A stretch of 64,000 bases of DNA from a candidate division WOR-3 bacterium (GCA_039802605.1 JBDRWW010000001.1:160001-224000), one strand, 5' to 3'; shown: positions 8,103 to 63,176, counted from the first letter of the stretch. Notes: generated from the sequence alone by a model not told the origin. Numbers and translations: made by a program.

Positions 8103-8870
8103 ATGATGTGGATAGTATTACTTTCGCAAAAGCCGGCCGTAGAGCCAATAGGGGTAAAAGATAGCACGGTGAAGGATGTGTATGACAAGGGGGAGATAGA
8201 CTGGACGCATGGGTTCATAAGGGCAAAGGGATACGGGTTCATAGACCCCAATAAACCCAAAGGTCAGGCCAAACTCCTTGCGGAAAGGGCCGCGGTTGTG
8301 GATGCCCGGAGGAATCTACTGGAAATCGTTAAGGGTGTTCATATAACCTCCGAGACGGTGGTTGAGGATTATATGGTTTCCAGCGATATAGTCGTTCAGA
8401 GGGTTGAGGGTCTGGTTAAAGACGCCAAGGTAATCGGAAAACCGAAGTACTATGAAGATGGAAGGGTTGAAGTTTGGGTTGAGATGAAACTGGATAACTT
8501 GGCCAAGACATTGCCCACAAAACCTTCCGTTAGCGAACCCCAAGAGAAACCCGAAGAAGGCGGTGTTATAATAAAAACCCCTGAGGGTACCAAGGCTTGC
8601 ATGTATCCAAGGATTCTTGATGAAAACGGCAATGTTTTGTTTGATGCTTCCCAATACCCGGAGGCAAAGGATATGTGGAGTAAGGCTATAAAATATGTGA
8701 AGGGTAAGGTTTCAACTCTACCCGGAGGTTCCATGGTTATAGAAGCATCGGAAACCAAAGGGTGTGATATAATCGTTAAAAAGGAGGATTTGGATAAGGT
8801 GAGCAAACTCAAAAAGTGGGGTTCATACATCCTCAAAGCCGGAAAGCTCATCATCAACCTTGTAATGTGA
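8103..8870 (+). CDS. LPP20-like exported protein
   Basis: GEIDWTHG.IRAKGYG and AERAAVVDARRNLLEIVKGV..SETVV; very short hydrophobic N-terminus; no lipobox Cys. Confidence 0.65.
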   Translation: MMWIVLLSQKPAVEPIGVKDSTVKDVYDKGEIDWTHGFIRAKGYGFIDPNKPKGQAKLLAERAAVVDARRNLLEIVKGVHITSETVVEDYMVSSDIVVQRVEGLVKDAKVIGKPKYYEDGRVEVWVEMKLDNLAKTLPTKPSVSEPQEKPEEGGVIIKTPEGTKACMYPRILDENGNVLFDASQYPEAKDMWSKAIKYVKGKVSTLPGGSMVIEASETKGCDIIVKKEDLDKVSKLKKWGSYILKAGKLIINLVM

Positions 8871-8890
8871 TACTATATAAACATCCATAT

Positions 8891-8917
8891 GGCCCCCATC
8901 TCTGGGGGCTTATTTTT
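8891..8917 (+). terminator. Rho-independent terminator
   Basis: GGCCCCC-ATCTCT-GGGGGCT followed by TATTTTT. Confidence 0.8.
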
Positions 8918-12233: not shown

Positions 12234-12710
12234 TTAAACTTTTTCCGCACTTATCTTTTGTCCCCCTTCCCTCAAACCCTCGGGATAGTACCAATTCCGA
12301 AGTTTCCCAAATCCCGATTCCAAAAGAACCCTACCCATTCTGCTTTCCGAAGGGTCTCCATCCCTTTTTAGGGCATTAAATGTTTGCGTATCCTCGTAAT
12401 ATTCCACATATAACCTTCCACCCTTTGGTAGGAATTCGTAAAACCTTTTAAACATTTCCCTTTCGATTTTACTGCCGAAAAAACTATAACCGCAAGGTTT
12501 GGGATTTATGGAAAATACTTCAACCCAAGGCTTATAGTAATCGTATCCGAGAAATACTTTTACAAAACACAGGAAATCTTCACGGTTGCCCTTTTTCAAA
12601 AAAACCGTTATGTTTTTTTCCCATTTAAACCTTCCTTCATCAACCTTTTTTATATAGATTTTGTACCCGTCCGCTTCAAAGTTCAGGTCTAAGCCTTCCA
12701 AACTCACCAT
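12234..12710 (-). CDS. DUF1122-like protein (hyperthermophile family)
   Basis: YYKPWVEVF, LYVEYYED..T, RNWYYPEGLREGGQKISAEK. Confidence 0.75.
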   Translation of the reverse strand: MVSLEGLDLNFEADGYKIYIKKVDEGRFKWEKNITVFLKKGNREDFLCFVKVFLGYDYYKPWVEVFSINPKPCGYSFFGSKIEREMFKRFYEFLPKGGRLYVEYYEDTQTFNALKRDGDPSESRMGRVLLESGFGKLRNWYYPEGLREGGQKISAEKV

Positions 12711-14164
12711 ACCACAACAAGCCTATAGGTTTTTTCCAACCCCTTAACGAAATACACCCCCTGTGGTAGATAACCTTCAAACCTCTTACCCGAGAAAACC
12801 CTCCTCCCCCCAACATCAAATATATCCACACCTGACAAACCTTCTACAATAACTTTACCCTTACCCTTTACTATCCTTACACCACTCTCCGATACATTCC
12901 CCACAAAGGTTGGGGATGGTGTGGCCAAAAGGGCCCTGTAAGAGTTTATCAATCCATACCCATAAAACCAATCCTTCCCAAATTCGCCCATGTCTATTGC
13001 CGTCCCGGTGATTATACCCCTTACATCGGCGGGGGAAAGGTTTGGGTTCTTTGATAGGATTAAGGCCGCAAGACCACTAACATGCGGGGTTGCCATTGAT
13101 GTCCCCTCAAGGTATCCGTATGAACTTATAAAGGGCATCGTGGATAAAATCATTACCCCGGGTGCAACCACATCCAACTCCGGGCCATAATTGCTGAAAT
13201 AAGCCTTTTCTCCTAGTGTATCGATTGCTCCCACCGCCATACTGGCCCGATAAGCCGCCGGATAATCTACGCTCGAAGAACCGTCGTTTCCGGCCGCTGA
13301 AACTACCACAACCCCAGCGGTATCAACGGCGTAATTTACGGCACTTTCAAGTTCGCTTGAAGGCATCGGACCTCCAAGGCTCATATTTATAACTTTTGCT
13401 CCCGTATCCGCGCACCACCTTATACACTGGGATACCCAAGCGGTTGAACCCGTTCCGCTGTCGTTTAATGCCCTGCAAGAGAGTATCAAACTTTGGGCTA
13501 CACCCACAACGCCCAAACCGTTATTCATGACCGCCGCTATCGTCCCGGCTACATGCGTTCCGTGAAACTCCAAAGAATTAACCGGATACGGGTCGTTATC
13601 GCCATTAACCATATCCTTTCCATACCCATAATTTGGGGCCAAATCCTCGTGGTTGTAATCCACACCCTGATCTACCACGCAAACCTTTACACTCCTGCTA
13701 CCAACCGTTATATCCCAAGCCTTGTCGGCGTATATAACCCATAACCCCCATAACGAAGTGCCGAGATAGGGATCGTTGGGCCAGTATAAGGCTTTATACT
13801 TTAAATTCGGTTCGGCGAATTCAACATTCGGATCCGAATTGAGTTCGTCTAATAAACTTTTAACAAAATCCAAACTTTTCGCATACTCGGGTAATTCAAC
13901 GAGATATGAAGGGGAGTAATTTAAGGGTTTAACATTGAAGCCCTGCAAAACCCTGGGTAAGGTTTTCCCAGTTTTTAGTCTCAATATTATGCTTTTGCCA
14001 TCCCAGTTTCTCCAATAATCCGCAGAATCCTTATATAACTCGTACCACTTATGAACCACAAGGTTGGAATGGACTCTCCTGAAATGCTCCTTTAACATAT
14101 CAACCCTTGCAAAGTCTATCCTATCATCCACATAAGGCCTGAAAAAGGATAAAATTACTATCAT
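12704..14164 (-). CDS. S8 subtilisin/thermitase-like serine protease with T9SS-like C-terminal tail
   Basis: VVDQGVD, HGTHVAGTI, AAGN, GTSMATPHV triad; tail IFDVGGRRV...GVYFVK. Confidence 0.95.
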   Translation of the reverse strand: MIVILSFFRPYVDDRIDFARVDMLKEHFRRVHSNLVVHKWYELYKDSADYWRNWDGKSIILRLKTGKTLPRVLQGFNVKPLNYSPSYLVELPEYAKSLDFVKSLLDELNSDPNVEFAEPNLKYKALYWPNDPYLGTSLWGLWVIYADKAWDITVGSRSVKVCVVDQGVDYNHEDLAPNYGYGKDMVNGDNDPYPVNSLEFHGTHVAGTIAAVMNNGLGVVGVAQSLILSCRALNDSGTGSTAWVSQCIRWCADTGAKVINMSLGGPMPSSELESAVNYAVDTAGVVVVSAAGNDGSSSVDYPAAYRASMAVGAIDTLGEKAYFSNYGPELDVVAPGVMILSTMPFISSYGYLEGTSMATPHVSGLAALILSKNPNLSPADVRGIITGTAIDMGEFGKDWFYGYGLINSYRALLATPSPTFVGNVSESGVRIVKGKGKVIVEGLSGVDIFDVGGRRVFSGKRFEGYLPQGVYFVKGLEKTYRLVVVW

Positions 14165-14589
14165 CTCAACCCCCTTAGATAAGACCTAACCCAATATGTT
14201 TTTGAACTTATAAGCGCGGAATTCCCGACAACAACATAATAAACCCCCTTTGCCAATACCGGTGAATAGGAAACATCTGGAACCGCCTCAACATAACCGT
14301 TTAACTGGGCGCTTTCGCCGTTATCCCATTTTGCATAATTTACGCTGTCCGCCCAAAAGGCATAGCTTATATCACCATCACCCGTTTTAACCCTCGCTTC
14401 AAAGTAAAGGGTATCCCCGTCTTGGGCTTCAAACTTTATCCAAAAGTATGAGCGGGGACCTAAGGAAACCGTGCCGTGGTATAGGTCAATGCTTGTAGGC
14501 CTTCCCGATTGCTGAGGAGGGTGTTGTTCCTCCTCATTTTTACATCCCAAAATTGCGGCAAAAAGTATAAACATAACAAACAACCTCAT
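14161..14589 (-). CDS. Hypothetical lipoprotein
   Basis: MRLFVMFILFAAILGC lipobox; TATAAT 9 nt upstream of ATG 14589; beta-rich domain with GVYYVVVGN. Confidence 0.7.
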   Translation of the reverse strand: MRLFVMFILFAAILGCKNEEEQHPPQQSGRPTSIDLYHGTVSLGPRSYFWIKFEAQDGDTLYFEARVKTGDGDISYAFWADSVNYAKWDNGESAQLNGYVEAVPDVSYSPVLAKGVYYVVVGNSALISSKTYWVRSYLRGLR

Positions 14590-19068: not shown

Positions 19069-21087
19069 ATGATCGGGATTTTAATAGCATCATCTCTGGT
19101 TAGGATATACGCACCTTTAAAGGAGGTTGAGAGGCTCCCCATAAAGGATTTGGATATTGCCGGGTTTTCCGCAAGGGGTGAATGGACGGATATACATGTA
19201 AAGGATCTTGGGGAGTTAAAGTTTTTAAAAGAAGCGGGTTTTAGGTATGAGGTAATTATCCCGGATGTTGATAGTTATATATCAACCGTAGCATGGGCGT
19301 ATCACAATACAAACGATGTTTATACCCTCCTCGTGAATTACAAAAACTCCTATCCTTCAATAACGAAACTTGATACTCTTGGTTTCTCCTGGGAGGGAAG
19401 GCCGATAGTGGCCATTAGGATAACGGACAATCCAAACACAAACGAAGGGGAGCCGGGAGTCTTGGTTATGGGAACACATCACGCCCGGGAATGGCCGGCC
19501 CTTGAAATACCCCTGTTTTTCATAGACACACTTTTAAGGGGATACGGTAGCGACCCGTTTATAACAAACGCCATAAACAACCTTGACATATGGATTATCC
19601 CCTTGGTTAATCCGGATGGGCATAACTATTCAAGAACCGTTTATTCAATGTGGAGGAAGAATAGGAGATATTTCCCATCGTTTGGGACATATGGGGTTGA
19701 TTTAAACAGGAATTACGGCGGTTCTGCGGATGGGAATCCAGGGGGTGAATGGTGTACCCCTACACCCGGGACATCAAATTATCCAAACTCCGATACATAT
19801 TGCGGCCCCGAAATTTTCAGCGAACCCGAAATTAAGGCGGTTTTAAACCTCTTGGATTCCGTTGATATAGTCGCTTCAATATCCTATCATACTTATACCG
19901 GTGCGGTCCTATACCCTTGGGGATATACCACAAACCCCACTCCGGATAACACATACCTATCAAATATAGCATCGGATATGGCATCCCAAATGGTTACGGA
20001 AAATAACAACCCATATGTTGCCATACAGGCCCCACAAATAGGTTATACCGCTACGGCGGATTCGGATGATTGGATTTACGGTTATTCCCTTTTCGTTAAG
20101 GGCTATCCCACATTGGCCTTTACCGTTGAAGCCTGTGAGAGTTTTCAACCCTCCGCATCCCTTTTGGATCAGATAGTTAGGGAAAACTACAAGGGTTTTA
20201 AGGTTATATTACAGAACGCCCCAAACATAAGATCAAATATGATACCATATCCGATAATATCCCAAATCCTCGTTCCCGATACCGTTTCTTCACCCTTTAA
20301 TATAAACATAAGCCTTAAAAACCCCATATCGTCACCAACAAAGTATGCCTTGAAGTATTATACCGGTTATTCCTATTCAACGGATGGGGCGGAAGGCGGT
20401 CTAGGTTTGTGGAATTATAACGGTTTTACAACATCGTCCACAAGGGCGCATTCCGGAACATACTCTTTTAGGGCAAATTACGGCAACAATGTGGCATACC
20501 ATATGACCACAAAATACCCGTATTATGTAAAACCCGGGGATAGTTTAACATTTTGGACATGGTACGATATAGAGGAAAACTACGACGCGGCCTTTGTTGA
20601 AATATCCGAAGATGGCAGGTATTTCTATCCTTTGGAGAAGATAACGGGTACCTCTACGGGATGGGTTAGGAAATCCTATTCCTTGCACCCTTGGGTTGGA
20701 AAGTGGATTTATATTAGGTTTAGGTTTGCCACAGATGGTTCGGTAACCGCAAATGGTTTTTATGTTGATGACATAAACCCGGTTCCATCCTTTTCATCGC
20801 AAGTTGTTGTGGATACAAACATAACATCCTTGCCCTATACCCTATCCCTTCCAAACGGAGAATATTATTTTTCCGCAAGGGGATACAATTCCGCCAAGGG
20901 TTGGGGTGATTGGAGCATGCCCAAAAAGGTGGTAGTTGTACCCGCAACTTATATAAGCGAAAAGGACAGCAAAGGCCCCGAAAGCGGGATTATATACGAT
21001 ATAACCGGGAGGAAGGTTGAAAAAACGACAAAAGGGGTGTATTTTATCGTAAAAGGGGGCAGGGTTGAGAAAATTATAAAGAGATGA
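19069..21087 (+). CDS. M14 zinc carboxypeptidase (carboxypeptidase T-like) with immune-inhibitor-A-like domain and T9SS-like tail
   Basis: HHAREW, NPDG, WRKNR, GVDLNRNY, SYHTY; WYDIEENYD and GFYVDDI domain; tail IYDITGRKV..KGVYFIV. Confidence 0.93.
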   Translation: MIGILIASSLVRIYAPLKEVERLPIKDLDIAGFSARGEWTDIHVKDLGELKFLKEAGFRYEVIIPDVDSYISTVAWAYHNTNDVYTLLVNYKNSYPSITKLDTLGFSWEGRPIVAIRITDNPNTNEGEPGVLVMGTHHAREWPALEIPLFFIDTLLRGYGSDPFITNAINNLDIWIIPLVNPDGHNYSRTVYSMWRKNRRYFPSFGTYGVDLNRNYGGSADGNPGGEWCTPTPGTSNYPNSDTYCGPEIFSEPEIKAVLNLLDSVDIVASISYHTYTGAVLYPWGYTTNPTPDNTYLSNIASDMASQMVTENNNPYVAIQAPQIGYTATADSDDWIYGYSLFVKGYPTLAFTVEACESFQPSASLLDQIVRENYKGFKVILQNAPNIRSNMIPYPIISQILVPDTVSSPFNINISLKNPISSPTKYALKYYTGYSYSTDGAEGGLGLWNYNGFTTSSTRAHSGTYSFRANYGNNVAYHMTTKYPYYVKPGDSLTFWTWYDIEENYDAAFVEISEDGRYFYPLEKITGTSTGWVRKSYSLHPWVGKWIYIRFRFATDGSVTANGFYVDDINPVPSFSSQVVVDTNITSLPYTLSLPNGEYYFSARGYNSAKGWGDWSMPKKVVVVPATYISEKDSKGPESGIIYDITGRKVEKTTKGVYFIVKGGRVEKIIKR

Positions 21088-22142
21088 TATTATTACTCCT
21101 TGCGGATACCGATTACAAGGCCGAGCTTGAAAGGATAAAGAGGAGGATAGAGCGTATAACCGAGGAAATAAATTTTTTAAAACAGAGGGAAGAGGAAACG
21201 GTTAAAAGGGTGGGGCTTCTGGAAAACAAGATATACCTTTTGGAAAACTACCTTTACAAACTACGCCTTCAAGAAAACAATTTAAAACTCAGGTTAAAAT
21301 CCACGGAAGTTCGCCTAAGGGAATTGGAAGAGGAAAAGGGAATAATATTGAAGAAACTAAAAAAGGGGATAAACCTTTTGTACCTTTTGCCTAAGCCCAC
21401 CCTTTGGGAGTTTATATTCAATCCCGAAAAGGCCTATGCTTACTATGAAAGGGCGGTTATCACGGAATCCCTAATTTATGCTTATCGGAATTCGGCAAGG
21501 GAAATAGAGGGTTTTGAAAGGGAATATACCCTTTTAAGGGAGAGGAGGAAGGCTTTGCTTGAAGATATTAGAAAAAACATCAGCGAACAAGAGCAAGCAC
21601 TCTCAGAATTGAAATCCTCAAAGGAGGAGCTGTCACGGGAAATTGAAAGTATTAGAAAGAGTAAGGCCCAAAAGGAGGCATATCTTTCCGAATTGCGGGA
21701 AAAGGAGAAAAGACTGGAAAAAATCATAAAAGAACTCGCAAAAAAGAAGGAGAAGAAAAAAGAGGATATTTACGGGGGTAAAACCCTAACTTGGCCTTTA
21801 AGGGGTAGGATTGTGGGCGAATTTGGTTATTATACCGATCCGAGGTATGGGGTTAGGATAAAGAGCAACGGAATAAGGATTTCCGCACCCACGGGTAGCG
21901 ATGTTTATGCTTCGGCGGATGGGAAAGTTGTATATTCGGGATATTTGGAGGGTTATGGAAATGTTGTAATAATTGAAAGCGGAGGGTTGTATTTGATTTA
22001 TGGGAACTTAATGGATATACTCGTTGGGGTGGATAAGATCGTAAAGGCTGGTATGAAAATAGGAACCGTTGGGAGCAAACCTTTGTACTTTGAGGTTAGG
22101 GAGGGAACCAAGCCCGTTGATCCTCTAAAATATCTACCATGA
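21084..22142 (+). CDS. EnvC-like murein hydrolase activator (coiled coil + degenerate M23)
   Basis: Long coiled coil, WPLRG, NGIRI (no HxxxD), LYFEVR (no HxH), PVDPLKYL. Confidence 0.85.
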   Translation: MILLLLADTDYKAELERIKRRIERITEEINFLKQREEETVKRVGLLENKIYLLENYLYKLRLQENNLKLRLKSTEVRLRELEEEKGIILKKLKKGINLLYLLPKPTLWEFIFNPEKAYAYYERAVITESLIYAYRNSAREIEGFEREYTLLRERRKALLEDIRKNISEQEQALSELKSSKEELSREIESIRKSKAQKEAYLSELREKEKRLEKIIKELAKKKEKKKEDIYGGKTLTWPLRGRIVGEFGYYTDPRYGVRIKSNGIRISAPTGSDVYASADGKVVYSGYLEGYGNVVIIESGGLYLIYGNLMDILVGVDKIVKAGMKIGTVGSKPLYFEVREGTKPVDPLKYLP

Positions 22143-26849: not shown

Positions 26850-27782
26850 ATGATATGGATGGTTTTGTTGCAAGTTGAAGAGGATCCTTATAAACCCGAC
26901 TCTTTAAACATGCGCATAGCGAAAAGTTTAAAACTCCCAACCCCTTGCTTTGGTATAACTATATCTGGAAAATACGCCTATCTATCCTCTTTGAGGAAAA
27001 TTTATGTGGTTGATATAAGTAAACCGGATAGTTTATATTTGGCCGCCACAATACCCACAACCAATATACCCTTAGGTTTAGCGGTTTATAAAAACTATCT
27101 CTATGTCGGGCACGGTTATAAGGGTTTATCCGTTTTTAATATATCCGATCCAAACATAGCATCCGAGATATATACGCTGCCCATGCCGGATACGACTATG
27201 GAGGTTAAAATGGTTGGAAATTATTTATATTTAACGCTGGGGGATTCCGGTTTTGCAATTGTTAGTATATCAAACCCTTCAAAGCCGCAACTGGTTAGTA
27301 TAACGAAAAGTCAGGGTTTTGTAAGGGGTATAACGGTTAAAGGTAATTACGCTTATGTTGCAGCAGGAAGGGAAGGGTTAAAGGTTTATAACATTGCCAA
27401 TCCCCAAAAACCCCGCCTTGTGGGGAGCTTCAAAACCGACGGATTTGCAATAGGTGTGGACGTTGAAGGGGGATTCGCATATGTCACTTTGGGTAGGAAG
27501 GGTATAGATATACTTGATGTTTCAAATCCCGAAAACATAAAGGAATTTAGATTGGCAAAAGGTCCGGGGGATGCATTAAACGCTAGGACTATAAACGGTT
27601 TGATATATGTGGCATTTGGATACGGTGGGGTTAGCGTTGTGGATCCAATAAACAAGGTGGAGGTTGCGAGGTATAAACCTCCAAAATATAGGGGTGATTA
27701 TGTTTTTGATATAGTTGTTCAGGATAAGTATGTTTTTGCGGCTTCAAGGAATGGGATGGTGGTATATGAAATTCTAAGATGA
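26850..27782 (+). CDS. LVIVD-repeat beta-propeller protein
   Basis: Repeats of G.YAYV...GL.V.DISNP..P; very short hydrophobic N-terminus. Confidence 0.88.
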   Translation: MIWMVLLQVEEDPYKPDSLNMRIAKSLKLPTPCFGITISGKYAYLSSLRKIYVVDISKPDSLYLAATIPTTNIPLGLAVYKNYLYVGHGYKGLSVFNISDPNIASEIYTLPMPDTTMEVKMVGNYLYLTLGDSGFAIVSISNPSKPQLVSITKSQGFVRGITVKGNYAYVAAGREGLKVYNIANPQKPRLVGSFKTDGFAIGVDVEGGFAYVTLGRKGIDILDVSNPENIKEFRLAKGPGDALNARTINGLIYVAFGYGGVSVVDPINKVEVARYKPPKYRGDYVFDIVVQDKYVFAASRNGMVVYEILR

Positions 27783-46996: not shown

Positions 46997-47464
46997 ATGA
47001 GGTGGATTGTCTTGGTAGTAGGTTTGTTAAGTCTTATAACCTGTTCAAAAAGGGAAGATAACAGCATTAAAGGTTTGAGCTTTAAAACCTTGGATGGTAA
47101 AATTTATAAATGGGAGGATTTGCAGGGTAAGGTTTTGATCGTTGATTTTTGGGCTACATGGTGTCAGCCTTGCAGGAAGTCCCTACCCGAGTTGGACGCA
47201 ATTTATAAGGAGTATAACGGTAAGGTTGTGGTTATAGGTTTTTCAAAGGATGATTCGGAAGAAGAAGTTAAAAACTTTTTGGAAAAGGAAATTAAAGTTT
47301 CCTATCCAATTGCTATGTCAAATCAAAAGCTGGAAAAAATGTTCGGTGGTATATTGGGTTTGCCCACAAGCTTTTTGGTTGATAAGGATGGTAAAGTTGT
47401 TAGGAGGTTCCTGGGATATGTCCCCAAGGAAGTTTTGGAAGAAAACATAAAAAGACTTTTATAA
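46997..47464 (+). CDS. TlpA-like thioredoxin lipoprotein
   Basis: Lipobox LITC; FWATWCQPC; GLPTSFLVD. Confidence 0.92.
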   Translation: MRWIVLVVGLLSLITCSKREDNSIKGLSFKTLDGKIYKWEDLQGKVLIVDFWATWCQPCRKSLPELDAIYKEYNGKVVVIGFSKDDSEEEVKNFLEKEIKVSYPIAMSNQKLEKMFGGILGLPTSFLVDKDGKVVRRFLGYVPKEVLEENIKRLL

Positions 47465-50539: not shown

Positions 50540-50907
50540 ATTGTTCCGACAACCTTGGGTTTCAAAAGTTTAAACCCCTATTTGAGGTTTATTATATCGG
50601 CTTTTGTGGGTGGGGGTTTGGGATTCTTGGCGGGAATCATAGGGATAGGAGGGGGAATATTTTTAAGCCCGGTATTGATATTTTTCGGATTTGATCCCAA
50701 AACTACCTTATAAACTCCGCAAGCGGGCTCATAGCCCGTTTGGGTTTCGTGGATATAGATTGGAAATTTACGGTTTTAAGCGTTATATCCGTATTCATAG
50801 GGGGTTTTGCCGGCTCATATCTCGGATCTTATAGGTTTCAAAGTAATACGCTTAGAACTCTCCTCGGTTTGGTTCTTGTAGTTGCCGGTATTAAACTCCT
50901 ACTCTAA
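50540..50907 (+). pseudogene. TauE/SafE (TSUP) permease remnant
   Basis: GGGLGFLAGIIGIGGGIFLSPVL ends in a stop at about 50713; a frameshifted piece NSASGLIAR...GGFAGSYLG...LLGLVLVVAGIKLLL follows; N-terminal half is missing. Confidence 0.8.
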
Positions 50908-52491
50908 TACCAAAACCCTTTTAACCCCGTTAGAACCTTTATAGAAATAAATCCCCTTATTTTCCGGTTTTGAAACCCTCCTACCATCAACCGTATACAG
51001 AAAACCGTTTTCCTTTATTATAAATCTCTCTTTCTCCATAACGATTGTGGAAGGTTCTTTAAAGCCTATATTTGCTATCCAAGTAGTCCATAAAGAATCC
51101 GTTCCCGCCTTCGGCAATTCCGCTATAACCCATAATGAGGAATCAACGGGATCAGGAGAACCCCCAAAATAATCCCCCCACCTGTTTCTACCGGAACCGT
51201 GGTCGTTAAAGTACCAACTTAAACCCGCTTTATACACATTGTAAGGGGAAAATAGTGTATCATAACTCACCCTTGCTATGTATGTGGCGGATGGATAGTT
51301 CGTACCGGATATGCCAACCCTCGTGAAGCTTATGGCAACACCCTTAGGCGATACGCTCACAGCCGGGTATATCCAACTTATCCCGTTCTCGTATAACCTC
51401 CTATCCTCCAAAACCACACCCGTTGTATCAACCACGACAAACCTAACGGATACCAACGAGGAATTAAGGGGGTGCGCTTCGTTAAATGCGTAGTAAATCT
51501 TTCCGTTTAGATAATAAACCTGAAAGGTTGCGAGTACAACTTCAAGGTTCGGATAACCCCCTCCCTGGGGGGCATCAGGAGGGGTGGAATATGGGGAGAT
51601 CGACAGGGTTATGCATGGTGAGAGTTGGGGCGATGAAACAGGCCCGTAGATTTTATACATCCTGTTAAACCTTATCAGATAAACGGCATCGGAATAATCA
51701 TAAGTACTCCTTGAAACCCTCGGCCAAGAGGGCATACAACCCAACTCCGAATCAACAAAATCCTCCCAAGATGATAGGGTACCATTATATGCGTCGGCTT
51801 TATTTAAAACCCTAACCTTTGGGTAATACGCATAGGATGAAAAACCTATCTGTTGTGAGGATATTACTATCCACTTATCGTTAAAACCCAATTCCGGATA
51901 ATCCGCCCAGTTGTTTGTTAAGGTGTTATCATCGTATTTGGCGTTTAGTCGGTAAAAGTACCATCCCCCTAAGGGGTTATCCCCCTCCGAAACGGCCAAC
52001 AGGTAATGGGATTCCCTGCTTGAAGAGTTGTAATACAAGGCCAAAACTATCCACCTTCCGGAAATTATGTCGTAAGCTATCTTAGGGTCAAAGGGCAAAC
52101 CCCCGGAGGGTATTACGGATGAAAAAAACCCGCGAAGAGTATTGATATATTCCGTAATCCCGGTAAATTTGTTTATAAATGCGATACTCGTATTAACCAC
52201 CACACCCACATGTGTGCTACAAGCGGCGAGTTGTGGATCCGGTGGTATCCAACCCGTATAGAAAATGCCTTCAAAATCCCTTATAAGGGTATCGGATGGG
52301 TAGGGGAGAAAGTCGGGATAAGGCCCCGTTTTATTTCCAAGGGGAACTTCTGCGGATTTTTCCCAAACATTTACATTCCTAAATTCCATAACCTCCTCCG
52401 GTGTTATCGGTATGTACTCCTTTGGGGGATTTGGCATATACGCCGTTTTTATTAAAACCGTATCAATTGCCAATATAAATAATCCCATCAT
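50899..52491 (-). CDS. Hypothetical secreted protein with T9SS-like tail
   Basis: PPDPQLA, FDPKIAYD...RW, WADYPELG, NRWGDY; tail LYTVDGRRV...KGIYFYK. Confidence 0.8.
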   Translation of the reverse strand: MMGLFILAIDTVLIKTAYMPNPPKEYIPITPEEVMEFRNVNVWEKSAEVPLGNKTGPYPDFLPYPSDTLIRDFEGIFYTGWIPPDPQLAACSTHVGVVVNTSIAFINKFTGITEYINTLRGFFSSVIPSGGLPFDPKIAYDIISGRWIVLALYYNSSSRESHYLLAVSEGDNPLGGWYFYRLNAKYDDNTLTNNWADYPELGFNDKWIVISSQQIGFSSYAYYPKVRVLNKADAYNGTLSSWEDFVDSELGCMPSWPRVSRSTYDYSDAVYLIRFNRMYKIYGPVSSPQLSPCITLSISPYSTPPDAPQGGGYPNLEVVLATFQVYYLNGKIYYAFNEAHPLNSSLVSVRFVVVDTTGVVLEDRRLYENGISWIYPAVSVSPKGVAISFTRVGISGTNYPSATYIARVSYDTLFSPYNVYKAGLSWYFNDHGSGRNRWGDYFGGSPDPVDSSLWVIAELPKAGTDSLWTTWIANIGFKEPSTIVMEKERFIIKENGFLYTVDGRRVSKPENKGIYFYKGSNGVKRVLVLE

Positions 52492-54629: not shown

Positions 54630-54649
54630 CGGCCTTATAATACCACCTT

Positions 54650-56305
54650 ATGAAAAGGTGTATATTTGTTTTACCGCTGTTGGCAGGCCCCTTAGGGGCA
54701 CAACTCTTCTACGCGTATCCCCAGACGGTATTCGGTCTCAGAGGGGTGTATTCCTTCCGCTTCATGCACACGGCTTTCCTGTTTGAGGACGACTTGGATA
54801 GGCTGTTCTACCCCGTTAAACTCTCGGAAATAGAGGGTGGTAGGTTCTTCTCCGCGTTGTCCAACCCCTTCGGGAACGAAAGGGCGCTTGACCCCACGGC
54901 CCCTACAAACAACCAGTTAATCTTAGGAGCAAAGACAAATGTTTTCCTAAACCTTTCTCCTTTGTATATGCAAACGGATCTAAACTTTGGAGTTTCTTCC
55001 AAATTGGACACGGTTTATTATCAAAATTGGAGTAATCCGGATAACAAGTACGCGGATAGGATAGAATTAAAGGATACCGTGTTCCAAGGTAGAGGATACG
55101 GCGAAAAGGGTTTCCTATTATCCCTAGGAAATCAAACCTTTGGCTTCCTGTTCCTCTATTCAAGCATGAATATTAAGGTTTATCCACAAAGAACGGGGGT
55201 TTTCCCATTCTCTTATGGAAATTACGCGTATGTGCGTAAAGAATACGATAACATAAACAACACCTTACAATCCTCAGATTCCGCGGTATCTTACAGAACC
55301 GTTGATACAAGTATAACACCCGTTTTGTTTGGGGTATCGCTTGGTTTCGGAGGGTTTTCCGGAATGGTTTTTGGCGGTTTTATGGGCGCAGGCGATAGGG
55401 ATACGGCAAATAGGTATGCGGAGAGAAACACAAATCCGGCAAGTCCGTTTACCGGTCAGAAATGGAATGGTGTTTTAACCGCTAACGGTAGAGCCTCAGG
55501 GCCCATATTCGGATTGCAGGGGGATTTGGCCTTCGGTTCCGAAACCTGGAAGTCCAACCTGATGTTTGCCTATGCCCTTAGATACCTTTCAAACGGAAAA
55601 GGTAAATCAAACGAGGTGAACTGGTGGGGAATATATAACGCCACTCAATACCCCACTTTTAGCACACTCGATTCTACTATCGGCGAGTACAAATATTCTT
55701 CAAATACACACGATATAACCATATATCTGAGGAATAAATATCCGGTTCACGAGCAGGTTTTGTTCGGTGCCGGATTGGCCTTAGAAATGGTGTTTGGGGG
55801 AATGAGTAGGGATTACACAAATGTTTTAAACAAAAGGATAACCTTTAACGATACCGATGGGGACGGTCTCGTTGATGCCCCCGGAGATGTTAGAACAACC
55901 AATTATACCAAATATTCTTATAAGGAGAATGTATCAACCACATCTTTTAACTACCACATACCCGTTGGCTTTGAAGTTGTACCCATAGCGAGTTGGGAGG
56001 ATGTTAAGTTAAGGCTTGGGGCACTGTATTCCCATACATCAACTACAACGACTACAAAAACCTATAATTGGAGCGTGGAGAGTAAAACTAAAACCGAAAC
56101 ATCGGGGGGAACAACGGAAACCCCAAACGATATAACCGTACCTGGTGAGAACATATCCAAGACAAAAACCTCCATATCAAACACCGCTTTCTATTACGGC
56201 GCATCCGTGGCGATAGCAAAGAGGGTTGTTATAGACTTTACCGGCTTTGGAAACGGGATATTAACACCGGCTTTTTGGAACATATCCGTTGTACTAAGGT
56301 ATTAA
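54650..56305 (+). CDS. Putative outer-membrane beta-barrel protein
   Basis: Canonical signal peptide, amphipathic strands (IPVGFEV, LRLGA, FYYGASV), C-terminal WNISVVLRY. Confidence 0.7.
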   Translation: MKRCIFVLPLLAGPLGAQLFYAYPQTVFGLRGVYSFRFMHTAFLFEDDLDRLFYPVKLSEIEGGRFFSALSNPFGNERALDPTAPTNNQLILGAKTNVFLNLSPLYMQTDLNFGVSSKLDTVYYQNWSNPDNKYADRIELKDTVFQGRGYGEKGFLLSLGNQTFGFLFLYSSMNIKVYPQRTGVFPFSYGNYAYVRKEYDNINNTLQSSDSAVSYRTVDTSITPVLFGVSLGFGGFSGMVFGGFMGAGDRDTANRYAERNTNPASPFTGQKWNGVLTANGRASGPIFGLQGDLAFGSETWKSNLMFAYALRYLSNGKGKSNEVNWWGIYNATQYPTFSTLDSTIGEYKYSSNTHDITIYLRNKYPVHEQVLFGAGLALEMVFGGMSRDYTNVLNKRITFNDTDGDGLVDAPGDVRTTNYTKYSYKENVSTTSFNYHIPVGFEVVPIASWEDVKLRLGALYSHTSTTTTTKTYNWSVESKTKTETSGGTTETPNDITVPGENISKTKTSISNTAFYYGASVAIAKRVVIDFTGFGNGILTPAFWNISVVLRY

Positions 56306-56707: not shown

Positions 56708-57450
56708 AAAAGATAATATTGGGTATTGTTCAAGGCATTACCGAGTTTTTACCCGTTTCAAGTTCCGGGCATCTGGTTTTTTTAAAACACATTTTTGGAT
56801 TGGAATTTAAGGGGGCATTCTATGAAACGTTTTTACATACCGCCACATTTCTTTCCGTAGTATTTGTATTGCGGGATAAAATTTTTAACCCACAAAATTT
56901 TAGAAAATATTTTCCACTTTCGGTGGTGGCCACAATACCCCTAATTCCCACCGTTTTTATAATAAAACCCCTTGAAGATACGTTTAACAACCCAAAAATT
57001 TTAGCTTTTACATTTCTCATAACCGGTGTTTTCCTGTTTTTAACCCTATTTGCACCAGAGGGGAATGAAAAACCCAATTTAAAAAATTCAATAATTATGG
57101 GTATATTTCAAACAATGGCCTTGCTGCCGGGAATTTCCAGGTCGGGGATTACAATATCTTCGGGGATATTTTCAAAAATGGAACCCGAAGAGGCCTTCAA
57201 TCTATCCTTTTGGATATTTTTACCCGCATCCCTCGGCGCCTTTGTTCTGGAAAGCAGATACATAAAAGAAATAAGCCTTAATATTTACGATTTTATCGTA
57301 TGGATAATAACATTCCTCGTTGGCGTTATATCCCTTAAAATATTAAGGCGGGTTCTTCTGGGTAAATTCTTCTGGGTTTTTTCGGTTTATACCCTATTCC
57401 TTTCCATCCTATCCTTCCTAATTTTCAACCTTAGAATTATTACACCATGA
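56698..57450 (+). CDS. uppP: Undecaprenyl-diphosphatase
   Basis: GIVQGITEFLPVSSSGHL, ALLPGISRSG.TI. Confidence 0.96.
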   Translation: MVVEKIILGIVQGITEFLPVSSSGHLVFLKHIFGLEFKGAFYETFLHTATFLSVVFVLRDKIFNPQNFRKYFPLSVVATIPLIPTVFIIKPLEDTFNNPKILAFTFLITGVFLFLTLFAPEGNEKPNLKNSIIMGIFQTMALLPGISRSGITISSGIFSKMEPEEAFNLSFWIFLPASLGAFVLESRYIKEISLNIYDFIVWIITFLVGVISLKILRRVLLGKFFWVFSVYTLFLSILSFLIFNLRIITP

Positions 57451-57854
57451 AAAGGATTTTAGTGATATTGGCATTTGTTTTGCCTATCGTGGTATTTGCG
57501 GATAAGGGGCATAAAAAGGGGAAACCCGTTAAGGAGATAGAGGGAGTAATAAGCGGGGCGGTCTGCGGGGTTTATGGTATTGCGTGTAACCACCGGCCTG
57601 GGGAACGCGGATACGAGTTACTCGGATTGTTCAACGATAAAAGGGGATTCTTTTACTTGGCAAATGTTCCTCAGGATATTTTGGCAAAGATAAACAGGGA
57701 AGAGGTCTTAGTTGTGGGTGAGGTTTATAGGGAGAGGGCAACGATAATAGCCGAAAAAATTATAAAGGATGGGAATGTAGTGTGGCAAGCGGAGGTGAAG
57801 GAAGACAAAGCAAAGGAAGGGGAGGAAAAGGACAAAGGGAGTAAGAGTAAGTAA
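57447..57854 (+). CDS. Hypothetical exported protein
   Basis: Canonical signal MKRILVILAFVLPIVVFA; two Cys; charged tail. Confidence 0.65.
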   Translation: MKRILVILAFVLPIVVFADKGHKKGKPVKEIEGVISGAVCGVYGIACNHRPGERGYELLGLFNDKRGFFYLANVPQDILAKINREEVLVVGEVYRERATIIAEKIIKDGNVVWQAEVKEDKAKEGEEKDKGSKSK

Positions 57855-59573: not shown

Positions 59574-60765
59574 AATAAGGCTGGAATTCCCATCGCTTAA
59601 AGAAAACGCGGTATATCTTGATTCCGGTGCTACCTCTTTAAAACCAAAAACGGTTATAGATGCCGTAAGGAAATACGAAGAGGAATTTCCGGCCAATGTG
59701 CATAGGGGGGCATACCCTTGGGCGGAAAGGGCTACGGAGGAGTATGAAAATGCGAGGAAAAAAGTTGCAAAACTTATAAACGCAAAGCCCGAAGAGGTTG
59801 TATTTACAAAAAATTGTACGGAAGCCCTGAACCTAGCGGCAAAGATTCTATCCGAATATGTTAAAGAAGGGGATAGGATAGTTGTAAGTATCCTTGAACA
59901 CCACGCGAATTTTTTGCCCTGGATGAGGTTGGCTAGGGAAAAGGGAGCGGAGTTTGTCGTGGTGGATATTACCCCCGAAGGTTTTCTGGATTTGGAAGAC
60001 CTCAAAAGGAAAATAACCCAAAACACAAAAATCGTAGCCATAACAATGGCTTCAAATGTATTGGGTACCATTCCCCCCATAAAAGAAGTGGTTAAACTCG
60101 CGAAGGATGTCGGGGCCTATGTTGTCCTCGATGGCGCTCAATACCTTCCACATCATCCCGTCAATGTGGGGAGCATAGGCGCGGATTTTGTGGGGTTTGC
60201 CGGGCATAAGATTTTTGGGCCATCCGGAACGGGTTTCCTTTGGGGTAAGTTGGAATTGCTTGAAAAGGGGGAACCTTTATTGGTTGGCGGTAGTATGATA
60301 AAGGAGGTTTATATAGACGATTATATAATGGCTGAAAGTCCGACAAGATACGAATCCGGAACGCCCAATATAGGAGGCGTGATAGGCTTGGGTGCGGCGG
60401 TTGATTTCATAAATTCCATAGGATACGATTTCATGGAAAGGTATGAAGCCAAACTCGTGGAATACCTTTACAACTCCCTTAAAAGCGTTAAAGGGGTTGA
60501 GGTTTATGGCCCAGAACCAAAGTACAGGACATCATTGGTTGCCTTTAATGTTAAGGGGATACACCCCCATGATGTGGCCTGGTATTTGGGTTTGGAGGGA
60601 ATAATGGTTAGATCGGGGGGGCATTGCGCCCACCCCTTACACCAAAGGTTAAAGATCCCCCACCACCAAAGCGTAAGGGCGAGTTTATCCGTTTTTAATA
60701 CGACGGAAGACATAGACAAACTTATTGAGGGTATTTTGAAGGCCAAAAAGGCCTTTAAAGTTTAA
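59521..60765 (+). CDS. sufS: Cysteine desulfurase, SufS type
   Basis: YLDSGATS.KP, ANVHRG, EHHAN..PW, AGHKIFGP.G, ESGTP, RSGGHCAHP. Confidence 0.95.
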   Translation: MKNRKADVVAEEVAVARKIRLEFPSLKENAVYLDSGATSLKPKTVIDAVRKYEEEFPANVHRGAYPWAERATEEYENARKKVAKLINAKPEEVVFTKNCTEALNLAAKILSEYVKEGDRIVVSILEHHANFLPWMRLAREKGAEFVVVDITPEGFLDLEDLKRKITQNTKIVAITMASNVLGTIPPIKEVVKLAKDVGAYVVLDGAQYLPHHPVNVGSIGADFVGFAGHKIFGPSGTGFLWGKLELLEKGEPLLVGGSMIKEVYIDDYIMAESPTRYESGTPNIGGVIGLGAAVDFINSIGYDFMERYEAKLVEYLYNSLKSVKGVEVYGPEPKYRTSLVAFNVKGIHPHDVAWYLGLEGIMVRSGGHCAHPLHQRLKIPHHQSVRASLSVFNTTEDIDKLIEGILKAKKAFKV

Positions 60766-60767
60766 GC

Positions 60768-63176
60768 CTATCTAATTACCCCAAACCATTTTTCAACCTT
60801 CTTATTATTTACGACTACCCTTAGAACATAAATATCCGGGGGCAAATCCGGCAAGGGGATTTCAACGGTATTTAACTTTTGGGTGGTAATCTCTTTGCCT
60901 AGAACCCTTGCCGCCCTTATGTTAAACACCTCTATTTTTACCTTAACATTTCCACCAGTTCCGTCATCGCCTATGAATATTTTAATTTTCCCGCTACCCT
61001 TAACGGGGTTGGGTATTACAAGAACATTCTTTGGATCCAGTAATGGGGGTTTGTTTAAAACTTTAAAGTTTGTTGAAGCCTTGGAAGAGGTTGTATAATC
61101 GTTATATGCCTCTACGGATACGGAATGTACTCCTGGACTCAGGTTGTCGGTTTTAACATAAACATAATCATAAGGAGATCCATCCAAATAAAACATACCT
61201 CCCCTTATCACGAATGCGGACGAGACTTGTGCTAGAACCAATACGCTATCCCCTATATAAGCGCTATCGGGTATAGTCCTTATAAAATCTATAAAAGCAT
61301 TTTCTCTCTTTTGTGTGATAAAGTAAAATGAATCCCTTCCGGCCCAATTTCCGACTACATCCTTTAAAGAATCAACTATAACCCAAACGGTGTCGCCGTA
61401 CGGTAGGGGATTTTTGGGGGATATCGTGATAATCTTTTGGGAGACCCAATTCTTGTTATATCCCGTAGAATCCAAAACGGTAGTATTGTACCTTATCCTT
61501 ATGGAATTTGGGTAAAATTCAACCGTATTCATGGGCTCGTTAAAGGTAATTTGAATATATGTAGCCGTTGAAACACCGGTTTGACCGTTTGCCGGATATG
61601 TATAAACTATATAAGGGCCCACGGTATCGTATATTTGCAGATAAAAGGAATCCCTTGAAGTGTTTCCGTAGAAGTCCGACGCATAAGCAAACATTTTATA
61701 AGTACCCTGTGGTAAATTTTCGGAGCTTATATGCACACATATGGTATCGGGGTTGGAGTAAGAACTTGAACCGTCGCAAGGCCTCAATGTAGCCCTTCTG
61801 TTATTGGCGCTATCCGTTATCCAAGCATCCAAAATGCCCGGTATAGCGGGGAAATCTCGAACGAAAACCCTTAAGGTATCGGTATAGGGTTGGTATATAA
61901 CAAGGGTATCAACATCCGTTGTATCGGAATCTATTAGGACCTTTACAATTGGCGGGGTTATATCCCCCAATGAGGAATAATATATTGCCGAATCCGGGTT
62001 TGATATTCCTACACCCCAAAGGTTTTTAATAAAAGTACCCACTTTTATTTTCACGGTATCACCGGCGTTGTAAGCGGTAATAAACATGTTTCTGTGCAAT
62101 GGGTTAAAGGTATCGGGAACTATTTTGAATCTTAAATTTCTGGGTAGGTTATTCACCCAAAACATAGTATCCCTGATACTTCTGGGGTCTATGGGTTGGT
62201 TAAAAATAACCACAATGCCCGCATTTGGAGGAACATCTGAACCGCTTGGGGGATTGAAGGATATTATAGAAGGTGGAGATCCGGGAGGTGGAACATAAAC
62301 ATCTTTGTATTTAAGCCCAACTTCGGAGGTATCTATGATGAATGTGCTATCCCCTGATAAGTCATAAACATAAAACCTATAAGCCGTTTTTATATCCCTG
62401 CTTTTAATTCCGAAGTTTCGAATAACCACCCACCTTACACTATCAATCCCGTCTATACTATCAATCCGTATGTTATAAGCCGTATCAACCCATCCGGTTG
62501 TTAGTTTTAATCTAAAAGCAATAGGGGTTAAAGTAGTCATTGTATCAGCCCTTATATCCAATACCCGTGAGTTTGTTTGTATAAATTTAATTGAATCGTT
62601 TCGCCCATCGTCATCAATGTCATCATTAAACATAACATAATTCATAATAGGCTTGTATATGCAGGTATCCAAAACGGGCCAACTATCGCTTGATGATAAA
62701 CCCTCCTTTACAAACCTCACACCATCAAAGGAATAAGGAACATTCTCTAATAAATCAACAATTCCATATACCATAGATGTATCAAGGATAACACCACGCA
62801 AGTGATTTGCCAAGGTATCCGGGCTTAGGGTATCTCCGATTATGGTGCTATCAACGAATTTCCATCGTAGGATATAACCAAATTTGTAGGTTTCCGGTAT
62901 CAAATAATTACACACCCCAAATGAAGATATAGTCGTAGAATACACCGAATACACACTATCCTTTATATAACCGGAACCCATTTTTCTACCGCTTATTCTA
63001 TAAACCCAATAATTTCCCGTTCCAACGCCTATGTATCCCAAGTCCCCCGAGCCCATTGGAGAGCCCGAAGGCCGTTTTATGGTTTTTATGCCCATATATT
63101 CGTGTTTAAGGTGGTCAAATATACTATCCAATTTTGCCAGATTTCCCAATATCCAAAAGGGTAAAAGCATATTCAT
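60768..63176 (-). CDS. Large secreted protein with Ig-like (Big_5-like) domains and T9SS-like tail
   Basis: P..G...V....I.V.FNQPID / I.FNEPM repeats; tail PNPV...IEVFNIRA...LPPDIYVLRV; SD AGGAGG. Confidence 0.78.
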   Translation of the reverse strand: MNMLLPFWILGNLAKLDSIFDHLKHEYMGIKTIKRPSGSPMGSGDLGYIGVGTGNYWVYRISGRKMGSGYIKDSVYSVYSTTISSFGVCNYLIPETYKFGYILRWKFVDSTIIGDTLSPDTLANHLRGVILDTSMVYGIVDLLENVPYSFDGVRFVKEGLSSSDSWPVLDTCIYKPIMNYVMFNDDIDDDGRNDSIKFIQTNSRVLDIRADTMTTLTPIAFRLKLTTGWVDTAYNIRIDSIDGIDSVRWVVIRNFGIKSRDIKTAYRFYVYDLSGDSTFIIDTSEVGLKYKDVYVPPPGSPPSIISFNPPSGSDVPPNAGIVVIFNQPIDPRSIRDTMFWVNNLPRNLRFKIVPDTFNPLHRNMFITAYNAGDTVKIKVGTFIKNLWGVGISNPDSAIYYSSLGDITPPIVKVLIDSDTTDVDTLVIYQPYTDTLRVFVRDFPAIPGILDAWITDSANNRRATLRPCDGSSSYSNPDTICVHISSENLPQGTYKMFAYASDFYGNTSRDSFYLQIYDTVGPYIVYTYPANGQTGVSTATYIQITFNEPMNTVEFYPNSIRIRYNTTVLDSTGYNKNWVSQKIITISPKNPLPYGDTVWVIVDSLKDVVGNWAGRDSFYFITQKRENAFIDFIRTIPDSAYIGDSVLVLAQVSSAFVIRGGMFYLDGSPYDYVYVKTDNLSPGVHSVSVEAYNDYTTSSKASTNFKVLNKPPLLDPKNVLVIPNPVKGSGKIKIFIGDDGTGGNVKVKIEVFNIRAARVLGKEITTQKLNTVEIPLPDLPPDIYVLRVVVNNKKVEKWFGVIR

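Follow-up and report, generated by a model that had tools for sequence, protein, structure and literature searches.

The stretch of DNA analysed here, referred to as the window, comprises 64,000 nucleotides (nt) of the genome of a candidate division WOR-3 bacterium (GCA_039802605.1, JBDRWW010000001.1; contig 1, 160001-224000). The genome assembly (G000) amounts to 1.65 Mb in 23 contigs and is rated 90% complete. Ten proteins encoded in the window begin with Met and a very short run of uncharged hydrophobic residues. We consider it likely that these N-termini are genuine, lineage-wide minimal export signals of the Sec type, that they use the SecA-SecYEG route and that many of them are cleaved by signal peptidase I. 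A prediction made previously from the window alone (the original prediction) had proposed a minimal signal peptide in this lineage and a modified targeting route. The first proposal was supported by all sequence-level tests that we ran. The second gained support from an unexpected side, as Ffh, FtsY and 4.5S RNA, which make up the SRP (signal recognition particle) pathway, were found neither in this genome nor in any of the 64 genomes of its class that were searched.

Short uncharged N-termini in the window

All ten short N-termini of the original prediction read as written there on re-translation. The gene of an LPP20-like protein (a weak Pfam match) at 8103..8870 on the forward strand starts with MMWIVLLS followed by Q. 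An in-frame stop lies 5 codons upstream and a -10 box, TAAAAT (8088..8093, forward strand), lies 9 nt before the ATG, with TTGACT 17 nt further upstream, so that the mRNA would be leaderless or nearly so. The S8 subtilase on the reverse strand (12704..14164) reads MIVILSFF before R, with a stop 8 codons upstream and a G-rich run resembling a Shine-Dalgarno (SD) site before the start. Back on the forward strand, the M14 carboxypeptidase (19069..21087) reads MIGILIASSLV before R and is preceded by TATAAT (19055-19060) and by stops 2 and 3 codons upstream. The start of the M23 (EnvC-like) peptidase gene (21084..22142, forward strand) overlaps the stop of the gene upstream; its product begins MILLLLA before D, and a stop lies 6 codons upstream. 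Also on the forward strand are the LVIVD-repeat protein (26850..27782; MIWMVLL before Q; TATAAT at 26836-26841; stop 4 codons upstream), the BNR/sortilin-type propeller protein (30747..32780; MVWMVGLTW, in full MVWMVGLTWVPLSI, before N; TAAAAT at 30733-30738; stop 27 codons upstream) and a protein of 41173..42213 (MLMALLSAP, in full MLMALLSAPLTP, before E; TATAAT at 41158-41163; stop 10 codons upstream).

The TolC-type outer-membrane factor (43905..45212, forward strand) has a presequence of 6-7 residues, MMWVIA(V), followed by LELTEDKAVEIAL; the SD site AAGGAGGTGG lies upstream and the nearest stop is 11 codons away. The remaining two genes lie on the reverse strand. One (50899..52491) encodes MMGLFILAI before D, with TAGAAT at 52499-52504 and a stop 29 codons upstream. 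The other (60768..63176) encodes a Big_5 protein with a C-terminal sorting domain of the type IX secretion system (T9SS) that scores below the Pfam cut-off; it starts with MNMLLPFWILGN, that is MNMLLPFWILG before N, and has an SD site, GGAGG, 6 nt upstream and a stop 2 codons upstream. Eight of the ten carriers thus belong to extracytoplasmic Pfam families (OEP/TolC, S8, M14, M23, LVIVD, BNR, Big_5 with Por_Secre_tail and, weakly, LPP20), and for the proteins of 41173 and 52491 no Pfam family was matched.

The TolC start is overlapped by 4 nt by a weakly P-II-like open reading frame (ORF) of 107 codons (43585-43908, forward strand). An internal ATG with its own -10 box would give a protein starting with MLFVVICSAPFMGEF, and the same arrangement occurs in a relative of the sister genus (MVALVVCSAPFLREF).

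In eight of the ten genes the nearest in-frame stop lies 2-11 codons upstream, and at 30747 and 52491 there are 27-29 open codons before the start. The motif TAnAAT, usually as CCTTAnAAT, occurs 7-9 nt before the ATG of six genes (8103, 19069, 26850, 30747, 41173 and 52491), and two (43905 and 63176) have a strong SD site. The starts are fixed because in-frame stops, -10 boxes and SD sites lie at the right distance. Just as had been predicted, stops precede 19069 and 26850 closely (by 3 and 4 codons) and most of the others lack an upstream start. The sole exception is 30747: here a GTG at 30684 directly adjoins a divergently oriented gene, and the 21 residues gained from it would not resemble a signal; the open stretch upstream of 52491 contains no ATG, GTG or TTG.

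Could signals of about 20 residues nevertheless be concealed by mis-called or non-canonical starts, by a different genetic code or by errors in the assembly? The assembly is fragmented and incomplete (23 contigs, 90%), start calls are heuristic and the two genes with 27-29 open codons leave some room for such an artefact. Against it stand the close in-frame stops of the other eight genes, which include TAA, TAG and TGA and which terminate real upstream genes. Furthermore, the -10 box occurs in varying frames relative to the ATG and is therefore a DNA signal rather than coding sequence. Normal-length signals are read without difficulty in the same genome, and TolC orthologues from independent genomes have a stop 2-6 codons upstream, directly before the SD site. 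Mis-called starts and assembly errors, which the original prediction had named as possible refutations, are excluded by the stops, the -10 boxes, the SD sites and the independent genomes, and we regard an artefact of any of these kinds as extremely improbable.

A genome-wide class of short presequences

For the whole genome, the longest ORFs of at least 100 codons were taken, overlaps were removed greedily and starts were chosen by SD site or -10 box. Short presequences were defined by a strict rule: after Met, residues 2-6 had to belong to ILVMFWACGST, four or more of them to ILVFMW, and the first D, E, K, R, N, Q or H had to fall at positions 7-13. This rule selected 116 of 1576 N-termini (7.4%) as against 114 of 7211 internal Met residues (1.6%). 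The first polar residue, at position 7-13, has its mode at 8-9. After removal of proteins with a later membrane segment, 98 of 1564 ORFs remained in the short class. The survey of the genome and its relatives that the original prediction had called for thus yields about a hundred cases here, and further cases in many genomes of the phylum.

The composition of the class is distinctive. Positions 2-5 are almost purely I, L, V, F, M or W, and it is at position 6 that Ser, Ala and Gly set in. Trp occupies position 3 (M-x-W) in 31 of the 98 short signals as compared with 3 of 114 internal-Met controls. As first polar residue, Gln leads with 30 cases, before Asp with 25, Asn with 15, Glu with 12, Lys with 9, Arg with 4 and His with 3. 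Lys or Arg is therefore the first polar residue in only 13 of 98, whereas the controls show Lys or Arg in 43 and Gln in 2 of 114. Gln at the junction exceeds the controls 15-fold, and an enrichment of Gln is also seen behind the canonical signals of this genome. Short signals that precede Gln include MIWVIFA, MMWILLA, MIILLLA and MVIFLIA; canonical ones end in ...VVFA, ...LGYA and ...PLFA. The hydrophobic core measures 4-7 residues and the whole presequence 6-13, as against 15-21 in the K/R-led signals of this genome. The anatomy is therefore that of a miniature h-region and c-region without an n-region.

Within the window the M-x-W start is found at 8103, 26850, 30747 and 43905, and the lipoprotein signal at 46997 also has Trp at this position (MRW...).

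The short class differs from three other known types of export signal. No member has a lipobox, and none has an Arg before the hydrophobic run as would be expected of signals for twin-arginine translocation (Tat). Nor do the members have the form of type IV pilin (class III) signals, in which a short charged leader ending in Gly precedes some 20 hydrophobic residues, since the hydrophobic run of 5-12 residues starts at residue 2.

Pfam searches (E <= 1e-4) were made with 56 of the 90 members outside the window, located in 20 stretches that hold most of them. A family was assigned to 37, and these comprise 27 envelope or secreted, 6 ambiguous and 4 cytoplasmic types, where the sorting of families follows what we take to be their usual place of work. 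Among the envelope carriers are BamA, a TamA-like Omp85 protein, LolA, Cu/Zn superoxide dismutase, two TonB-dependent receptors, OmpA and a Wza-type Poly_export protein, and further envelope or secreted carriers include Amidase_2, Amidase_3, S8, C25, PD40, GSDH and three T9SS cargo proteins. The cytoplasmic-looking members are a glycosyltransferase, YidD, a BFN nuclease and a cytidine deaminase. The control consisted of 56 proteins out of the 232 that lie in these stretches and have no hydrophobic N-terminus; they were searched at a stricter threshold (E <= 1e-8). A family was found for 45, nearly all of them cytoplasmic enzymes, and only one was a clear envelope type. This one, a barrel like that of TonB-dependent receptors, starts with MIYLLAYYISGYIYGE, a short uncharged sequence missed by our rule.

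The mature domains begin early, namely at residue 13 (OEP), 10 (CarboxypepD_reg), 10 (POTRA), 11 (Poly_export), 12 (Phosphodiest) and 8 (thioredoxin fold), which leaves no room for a signal of normal length. Judged by their families, the carriers have to get across the inner membrane. This is also the case for the cargo of type IX secretion, which must first pass the inner membrane through Sec. The T9SS sorting domain PF18962 was found at 19 places in the genome, which together with the weak member in the window makes 20 ORFs. Among these ORFs, which were picked without regard to their N-terminus, 16 have short uncharged N-termini (for example MMWIFGYYFL, MIWILVGSGAV, MVWIIS, MMVVVIS and MFLIIL), 2 are K/R-led and 2 have ambiguous starts.

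Canonical signals in the same genome

Not all export-type proteins of this bacterium carry short presequences. The thioredoxin-like lipoprotein of 46997..47464 (forward strand) has a K/R-led signal with the lipobox MRWIVLVVGLLSLITC, and lipoprotein-type signals are also found at 36828..37556 (reverse strand; MRYILPFSAFVLSC) and 14161..14589 (reverse strand; MRLFVMFILFAAILGC from the ATG at 14589). Two further proteins of the window, 54650..56305 and 57447..57854 (both forward strand), have the canonical K/R-led signals MKRCIFVLPLLAGPLGA before Q and MKRILVILAFVLPIVVFA before D.

The original prediction had named the genes at 4699, 14589, 37556 and 46997 (with lipobox Cys), as well as those at 54650 and 57447, as the ones that keep normal signals. 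This proved right for the genes named, but a mere two non-lipoproteins is too low a figure, the rough class numbering 54 genome-wide, with some anchors and cytoplasmic proteins among them. The number of non-lipoproteins that retain K/R-led signals is put at about 20-50. A broad K/R-led class comprised 128 ORFs, of which 34 had a lipobox and 34 further membrane segments. The remaining 60 contain clear signals of the signal peptidase I type, 15-21 residues long (for example MKRLFLVLSIIPAVVFA and MKKVLLVFGFASPLFA, both before Q), alongside anchors and a number of cytoplasmic proteins. Our lipobox class numbers 35 proteins, with K/R-led signals of 15-25 residues. Samples from relatives showed the same split: their lipoproteins are K/R-led and many of their non-lipoproteins are short. 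Gln directly follows the presequence in 12 of 54 K/R-led proteins of the filtered class and in 30 of 98 short ones; cases in the window are 8103, 26850 and 54650.

Conservation of the presequences and their spread across the phylum

TolC was matched in all 31 relatives searched, and 20 loci were read. In the family of the window, 11 loci were readable (one more was incomplete) and all encode Met plus 5-8 uncharged hydrophobic residues: MMWVIAV, MIWFIAT, MIFILS, MILLLVS, MTLVLLS, MILTLSM, MMLLAVA, MIWLFS and MLLLVCMP were found. The conserved sequence L/I-x-L-T/S-E-E/D-K-A-V then follows, and the last residue of the presequence is mostly S, A or T. These loci have an SD site of the GGAGGTGGAGG type, and in several of them a stop 2-6 codons upstream directly precedes it. 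TolC loci of independent genomes with this arrangement are L004, L008, L010, L015 and L020. In the sister family of the same order the presequence has 8-10 residues without K or R (4 loci), so that not one of the 15 TolC presequences of the two families (f1 and f2) contains a basic residue. Elsewhere in the class, families f7 and f9 have 11-15 residues, and in two genomes of f5 a canonical signal, MRRFIVSIGIFVGWSLA or MNRFFLTPFLLVGWLAA, ends at the same point.

BamA was matched in all 81 genomes sampled from the phylum and read at 30 loci. Presequences of 7-9 residues occur in the family of the window (MLLGILVL before Q; MVLLLIG before Q) and in f5 (M(I/L)xxAIxA before Q). Those of f3, f4 and f10 have 11-12 residues and sometimes one K, those of f13, f27 and f31 have 10-14 and those of f8 have 16, all uncharged in the latter four families; in f12, f15, f20 and f25 the signal is K/R-led with 20-25 residues. 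Comparison with orthologues, which the original prediction had recommended, thus indicates that TolC and BamA presequences of 6-10 residues are kept in the family and the order, in many cases with a stop located 2-6 codons before the start.

It might be objected that the N-terminal peptide is not the signal at all, and that export depends on another determinant or a novel route while the hydrophobic start has some other role. The short presequences do lack the n-region and the length of Sec signals, and targeting in this lineage seems unusual in that no SRP was found. On the other hand, the peptide sits exactly where orthologues of sister families carry canonical signals, and it is the only feature common to otherwise unrelated envelope proteins. 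SecA, SecY and LepB are intact, moreover, and a Tat-like RR motif does not occur in the class. We consider this explanation improbable.

Samples of 40-200 kb from other genomes were run through the same pipeline and the share of short N-termini among all non-lipoprotein export-like N-termini was determined. Among SRP-negative genomes the share was 0.60 in our own genome (98/162), 0.45 in the sister genus of the family, 0.67 and 0.60 in two genomes of the sister family, 0.38 in f5, 0.25 and 0.17 in two genomes of f4, 0.29 in f3, 0.11 in f8, 0.17 in f26 and 0.20 in f24; the f10 sample had no export-like N-terminus in 30 ORFs. A sample of f17, whose SRP status is ambiguous (one weak SRP54-type hit, no SRP RNA), gave 0.29. 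Seven SRP-positive samples ranged from 0.00 to 0.20, and two others reached 0.50 (G074, f19) and 0.46 (G078, f27). About half of the short hits of G074 are cytoplasmic false positives; its real cases include one resembling TolC, in which LTLEDAIEMGL follows MIFLLLLAFN, and at least five real cases were read in G078. As numbers are small and the genomes are kin, no statistical claim is attached to these shares. Taken with the TolC and BamA presequences, they suggest a trait that is graded across the phylum, most extreme in the order of the window and not confined to one lineage.

Export machinery and the apparent lack of SRP

Profile matches showed that SecY, SecA and LspA are present in the genome. 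SecA was found in all 81 phylum genomes and YidC as a single copy in 80 of them. Signal peptidase I (LepB, PF10502) is encoded in this genome and in 29 of 31 relatives. Our LepB gene (L074) is located on contig 1 at 226079-226657 on the reverse strand, 2 kb past the end of the window. A single membrane helix forms the N-terminal part of the protein, and the catalytic Ser box SSSMENTL comes immediately after it; a Lys box and GDNRDYSWDSR are also present, and nothing about the protein is obviously unusual. The Ser box has Asn at a position where Pro is usual. Since LepB is present, processing is possible. A scheme in which loss of signal peptidase I had forced the use of short signals that do not anchor is ruled out by its occurrence.

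The picture is different for SRP. The M domain of Ffh (PF02978) was not matched at E <= 0.1 in any of the 31 relatives, apart from one chance-level hit of 15 bits, and all 14 controls were matched. The SRP54-type GTPase profile PF00448, which should detect both Ffh and FtsY, gave only a P-loop match of 20.8 bits in this genome, again with 14 of 14 controls matched. Over the 81 phylum genomes, a pair of PF00448 hits with E from 1e-61 to 1e-76 was the usual result in 16 families, where G040, G071 and G075 showed a single one; f1, f4, f5, f8, f10, f11, f23, f24, f26 and f32 showed none. Only partial hits of 27-28 bits were seen in f3, and f17, f21 and f25 had one hit near 1e-40, which may represent FlhF. 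The 4.5S RNA model RF00169 matched 49 of the 81 genomes, none of them in the class, and 12 of 14 controls. Positive genomes were exactly those of the families with strong PF00448 pairs, with the exception of one f16 genome; no match was obtained elsewhere, including f17, f21 and f25.

Protein searches agreed with the profiles. Against this genome, tblastn with five FtsY proteins of the phylum reached no E below 0.063. A same-phylum Ffh protein found no match among the 64 species genomes searched in the class, 44 of them with a completeness of 90% or more, the controls being those of the profile and RNA searches only. Some of the genomes without Ffh, FtsY and 4.5S RNA are 99-100% complete in 3-4 contigs (G020 and G048). 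Thus the class, and with it f11, f23, f24, f26 and f32, appears to be without the SRP pathway, in the sense that its components were not found in the genomes searched. The original prediction had pointed to SecA, SecY, LepB and SRP as places where lineage-specific changes might be seen. For SRP this was borne out by its apparent absence; the length of SecA showed no pattern with SRP status, and LepB nothing obviously unusual.

Several ideas connected with the loss of SRP were considered and found no support. One was that a YidC with a long basic ribosome-binding tail had replaced SRP. The YidC of this genome (contig 2, 69241-69768, forward strand; open frame of 451 codons) is the shortest of 81 and ends 6 residues past the conserved domain; the tail has 4-11 residues in three other SRP-negative genomes, and longer tails were seen only in G056 (39 residues) and G080 (23 residues). 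Another was that the length of SecA follows SRP status, for which no pattern was seen. The third was that short signals are a strict consequence of SRP loss. SRP-positive G074 (f19) and G078 (f27) have clear short signals, and the SRP-negative samples of f4, f8, f24 and f26 are mostly K/R-led, bearing in mind that these samples cover 40-200 kb each and come from related genomes. Because short signals occur in two SRP-positive families, loss of SRP is not their simple cause and the two traits are not strictly coupled.

Promoter-like motifs close to the start codon

The -10 boxes of the window genes reflect a genome-wide pattern. In 444 of 1576 long ORFs (about 28%), TAnAAT ended 6-10 nt upstream of the first start codon. 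Counts for spacers of 6, 7, 8, 9 and 10 nt were 59, 67, 158, 131 and 29, with no more than 15 at every other spacer from 0 to 34, so that there is a sharp peak at 8-9 nt. Alignment gave the promoter-like consensus aaaAAAtttttCa.CcTTAtAAT. A promoter in this place would cause the mRNA to begin at the ATG or 1-3 nt from it, which suggests leaderless or near-leaderless transcription. Starts that have a -10 box 6-10 nt before them make up 0.28-0.32 of all starts in the order of the window and mostly no more than 0.08 outside the class (samples of 40-200 kb). The same consensus motif also stands before start codons at 46983-46988, 54636-54641 and 57432-57437 on the forward strand and at 14599-14604 on the reverse strand.

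RNA libraries provide some further information. Contigs of two RNA libraries carry parts of the M14, M23 and LVIVD genes with at least 99% identity, from which the 5' end cannot be deduced. Contigs of a sediment metatranscriptome (X1) match 19540-22106 and 27330-27913, that is M14, M23, LVIVD and neighbouring genes, without a mismatch. The organism or a near-identical strain was therefore present in that RNA library, which in itself does not prove transcription.

A model for minimal export signals

How might such signals work? We envisage a presequence of Met, 4-6 strongly hydrophobic residues (I, L, V, F or M, often with Trp at position 3) and 1-3 smaller ones, without a basic n-region. Since SRP seems to be gone, no known targeting factor other than SecA remains, and the proteins would be brought by SecA to SecYEG, where the short hydrophobic stretch would fill the signal-binding site at the lateral gate of SecY. 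In published translocon structures about 4-7 very hydrophobic residues fill this site. The part of the Lys/Arg n-region might be played by the free or formylated N-terminus, by Met itself and perhaps by Trp3, which is speculation. Lipoproteins, which have to be held in the membrane by Lgt and LspA, retain their K/R-led signals, 15-20 residues long.

Many of the short signals would then be cleaved by signal peptidase I after residue 6-10. Such cleavage seems likely because LepB is kept, because Gln is enriched at the junction and because TolC presequences end in small residues. Many short signals also finish as the canonical ones of this genome do, with a hydrophobic and then a small residue before Gln.

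A number of observations weigh against this model. Gene calls were home-made with heuristic starts, not the work of a trained gene finder. The strict class contains false positives, given that 4 of 37 annotated members look cytoplasmic and that the background is 1.6%. The evidence for leaderless transcription is the motif itself; a -35 hexamer was not enriched upstream of the -10 boxes (48/354, compared with 195/2000 random TAnAAT sites), and no match to the window turned up in the approximately 3% that was examined of two raw-read metatranscriptomes. Export and cleavage of the short-signal proteins are deduced from sequence. As to cleavage, a small residue stands just before the first polar residue in 43 of 98 short signals as against 39 of 54 K/R-led ones, and before Gln in 19 of 30 as against 11 of 12, so that many short signals are without a textbook cleavage site. 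Finally, a peptide of 6-9 residues cannot span the bilayer to reach a peptidase whose active site is on the periplasmic face.

The last points lead to a different possibility, namely that the short peptide is the export signal but is not removed. It would open SecYEG, be too short to anchor the protein and stay on as a greasy tag or weak tether. About half of the class would fit, having no small residue before the first polar one (for example MLLWVFIF, MIWMVLL and MLLGILVL, each followed by Q), and without a basic n-region nothing would keep the N-terminus on the cytoplasmic side. Against this possibility stand the retention of LepB in almost all relatives (29 of 31) and the S, A or T that ends the presequence of most TolC orthologues. 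The Gln junction (30/98 as against 2/114 in controls, and also 12/54 after canonical signals) is hard to understand without processing. We think retention of the peptide somewhat unlikely, yet with a small junction residue in fewer than half of the class and so short a peptide it has to be taken seriously as an alternative for some of the signals. The cleaved and uncleaved variants are not mutually exclusive.

The minimal, often cleaved Sec signal remains the explanation that we favour. A wider scenario may be tentatively added, to which we would give less than an even chance: the class, made up of diderm and apparently free-living bacteria of which 64 species genomes were searched, may have rebuilt the first step of its export, dropping SRP, FtsY and 4.5S RNA and sending most non-lipoprotein envelope proteins, BamA and TolC among them, through SecA and SecYEG alone by uncharged signals of 6-10 residues. 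These presequences, below any length so far held to be workable, would be cleaved by signal peptidase I. Both changes would be stages of a single trend in the evolution of the phylum, in which short signals, as SRP-positive families show them, came first and the loss of SRP afterwards.

Significance and comparison with known systems

Signal peptides are held to be universally three-part, and this view underlies predictors, surveys of secretomes and the models made of SecA, SecY and signal peptidase. If 6-10 uncharged residues suffice in nature, it becomes possible to test how little is really needed to open the translocon. Secretome counts for the phylum would fall far short, since most of the type IX cargo and of the outer-membrane proteins would seem to have no signal, and very short export tags would become available for engineering. 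A class without Ffh, FtsY and 4.5S RNA would be a natural system for the study of membrane-protein targeting without SRP, for which there were previously only mutants, organelles and decaying symbionts. The literature that we searched, with most subscription journals outside the search, describes neither natural ultra-short Sec signals nor SRP loss in free-living bacteria, and the main text of the WOR-3 literature examined does not mention ffh, ftsY, SRP, signal peptides or secretion.

The canonical signal for Sec and signal peptidase I is tripartite (n-h-c) and about 18-30 residues long, with an h-region of about 7-15 residues and small residues at -1 and -3. The short signals resemble it in standing at the N-terminus of envelope and secreted proteins and in the order of a hydrophobic core, smaller residues and a polar start of the mature protein. 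SecA, SecYEG and LepB are encoded, and ordinary K/R-led signals coexist with the short ones in the genome. In contrast to the canonical signal, the short class has no basic n-region and a shorter core, and the small-residue rule holds in under half of its members. The short signals would thus be Sec signal peptides that break two of the defining features of their kind.

Engineered and idealised signals with short poly-Leu cores reportedly worked in E. coli in the 1990s, strong hydrophobicity offsetting short length and missing charge. The short signals are similar in that a very hydrophobic core would offset the short length and the missing positive charge. They differ in that the engineered signals had about 8-10 core residues and an n-region, whereas here a natural, proteome-wide class goes lower.

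YidC2 and Oxa1 possess ribosome-binding tails; YidC of our bacterium, by comparison, is single-copy and has a C-terminal tail of 6 residues.

The enrichment of Gln recalls the Q-rule of the Bacteroidetes, in which substrates of signal peptidase I have Gln at +1 and a glutaminyl cyclase is present. This rule is reported to hold in Bacteroidetes but not in the whole FCB (Fibrobacteres-Chlorobi-Bacteroidetes) group (PMC5837995, PMC10653852). Gln after the presequence is strongly enriched in our genome too, and the lineage likewise has type IX secretion, but its presequences are far shorter. The plant-type glutaminyl cyclase PF05096 was found in none of 31 genomes, and a Bacteroides control was equally silent, so that this result carries no weight.

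Life independent of SRP is described for mutants of Streptococcus mutans (PMC8546722) and for mitochondria (PMC8321541), in which Ffh, FtsY and SRP RNA are dispensable or lost, as they appear to be here. In contrast to those cases, the loss in the class of our bacterium would be natural and would extend over a whole class of organisms with genomes of 1.2-2.4 Mb and full envelopes.

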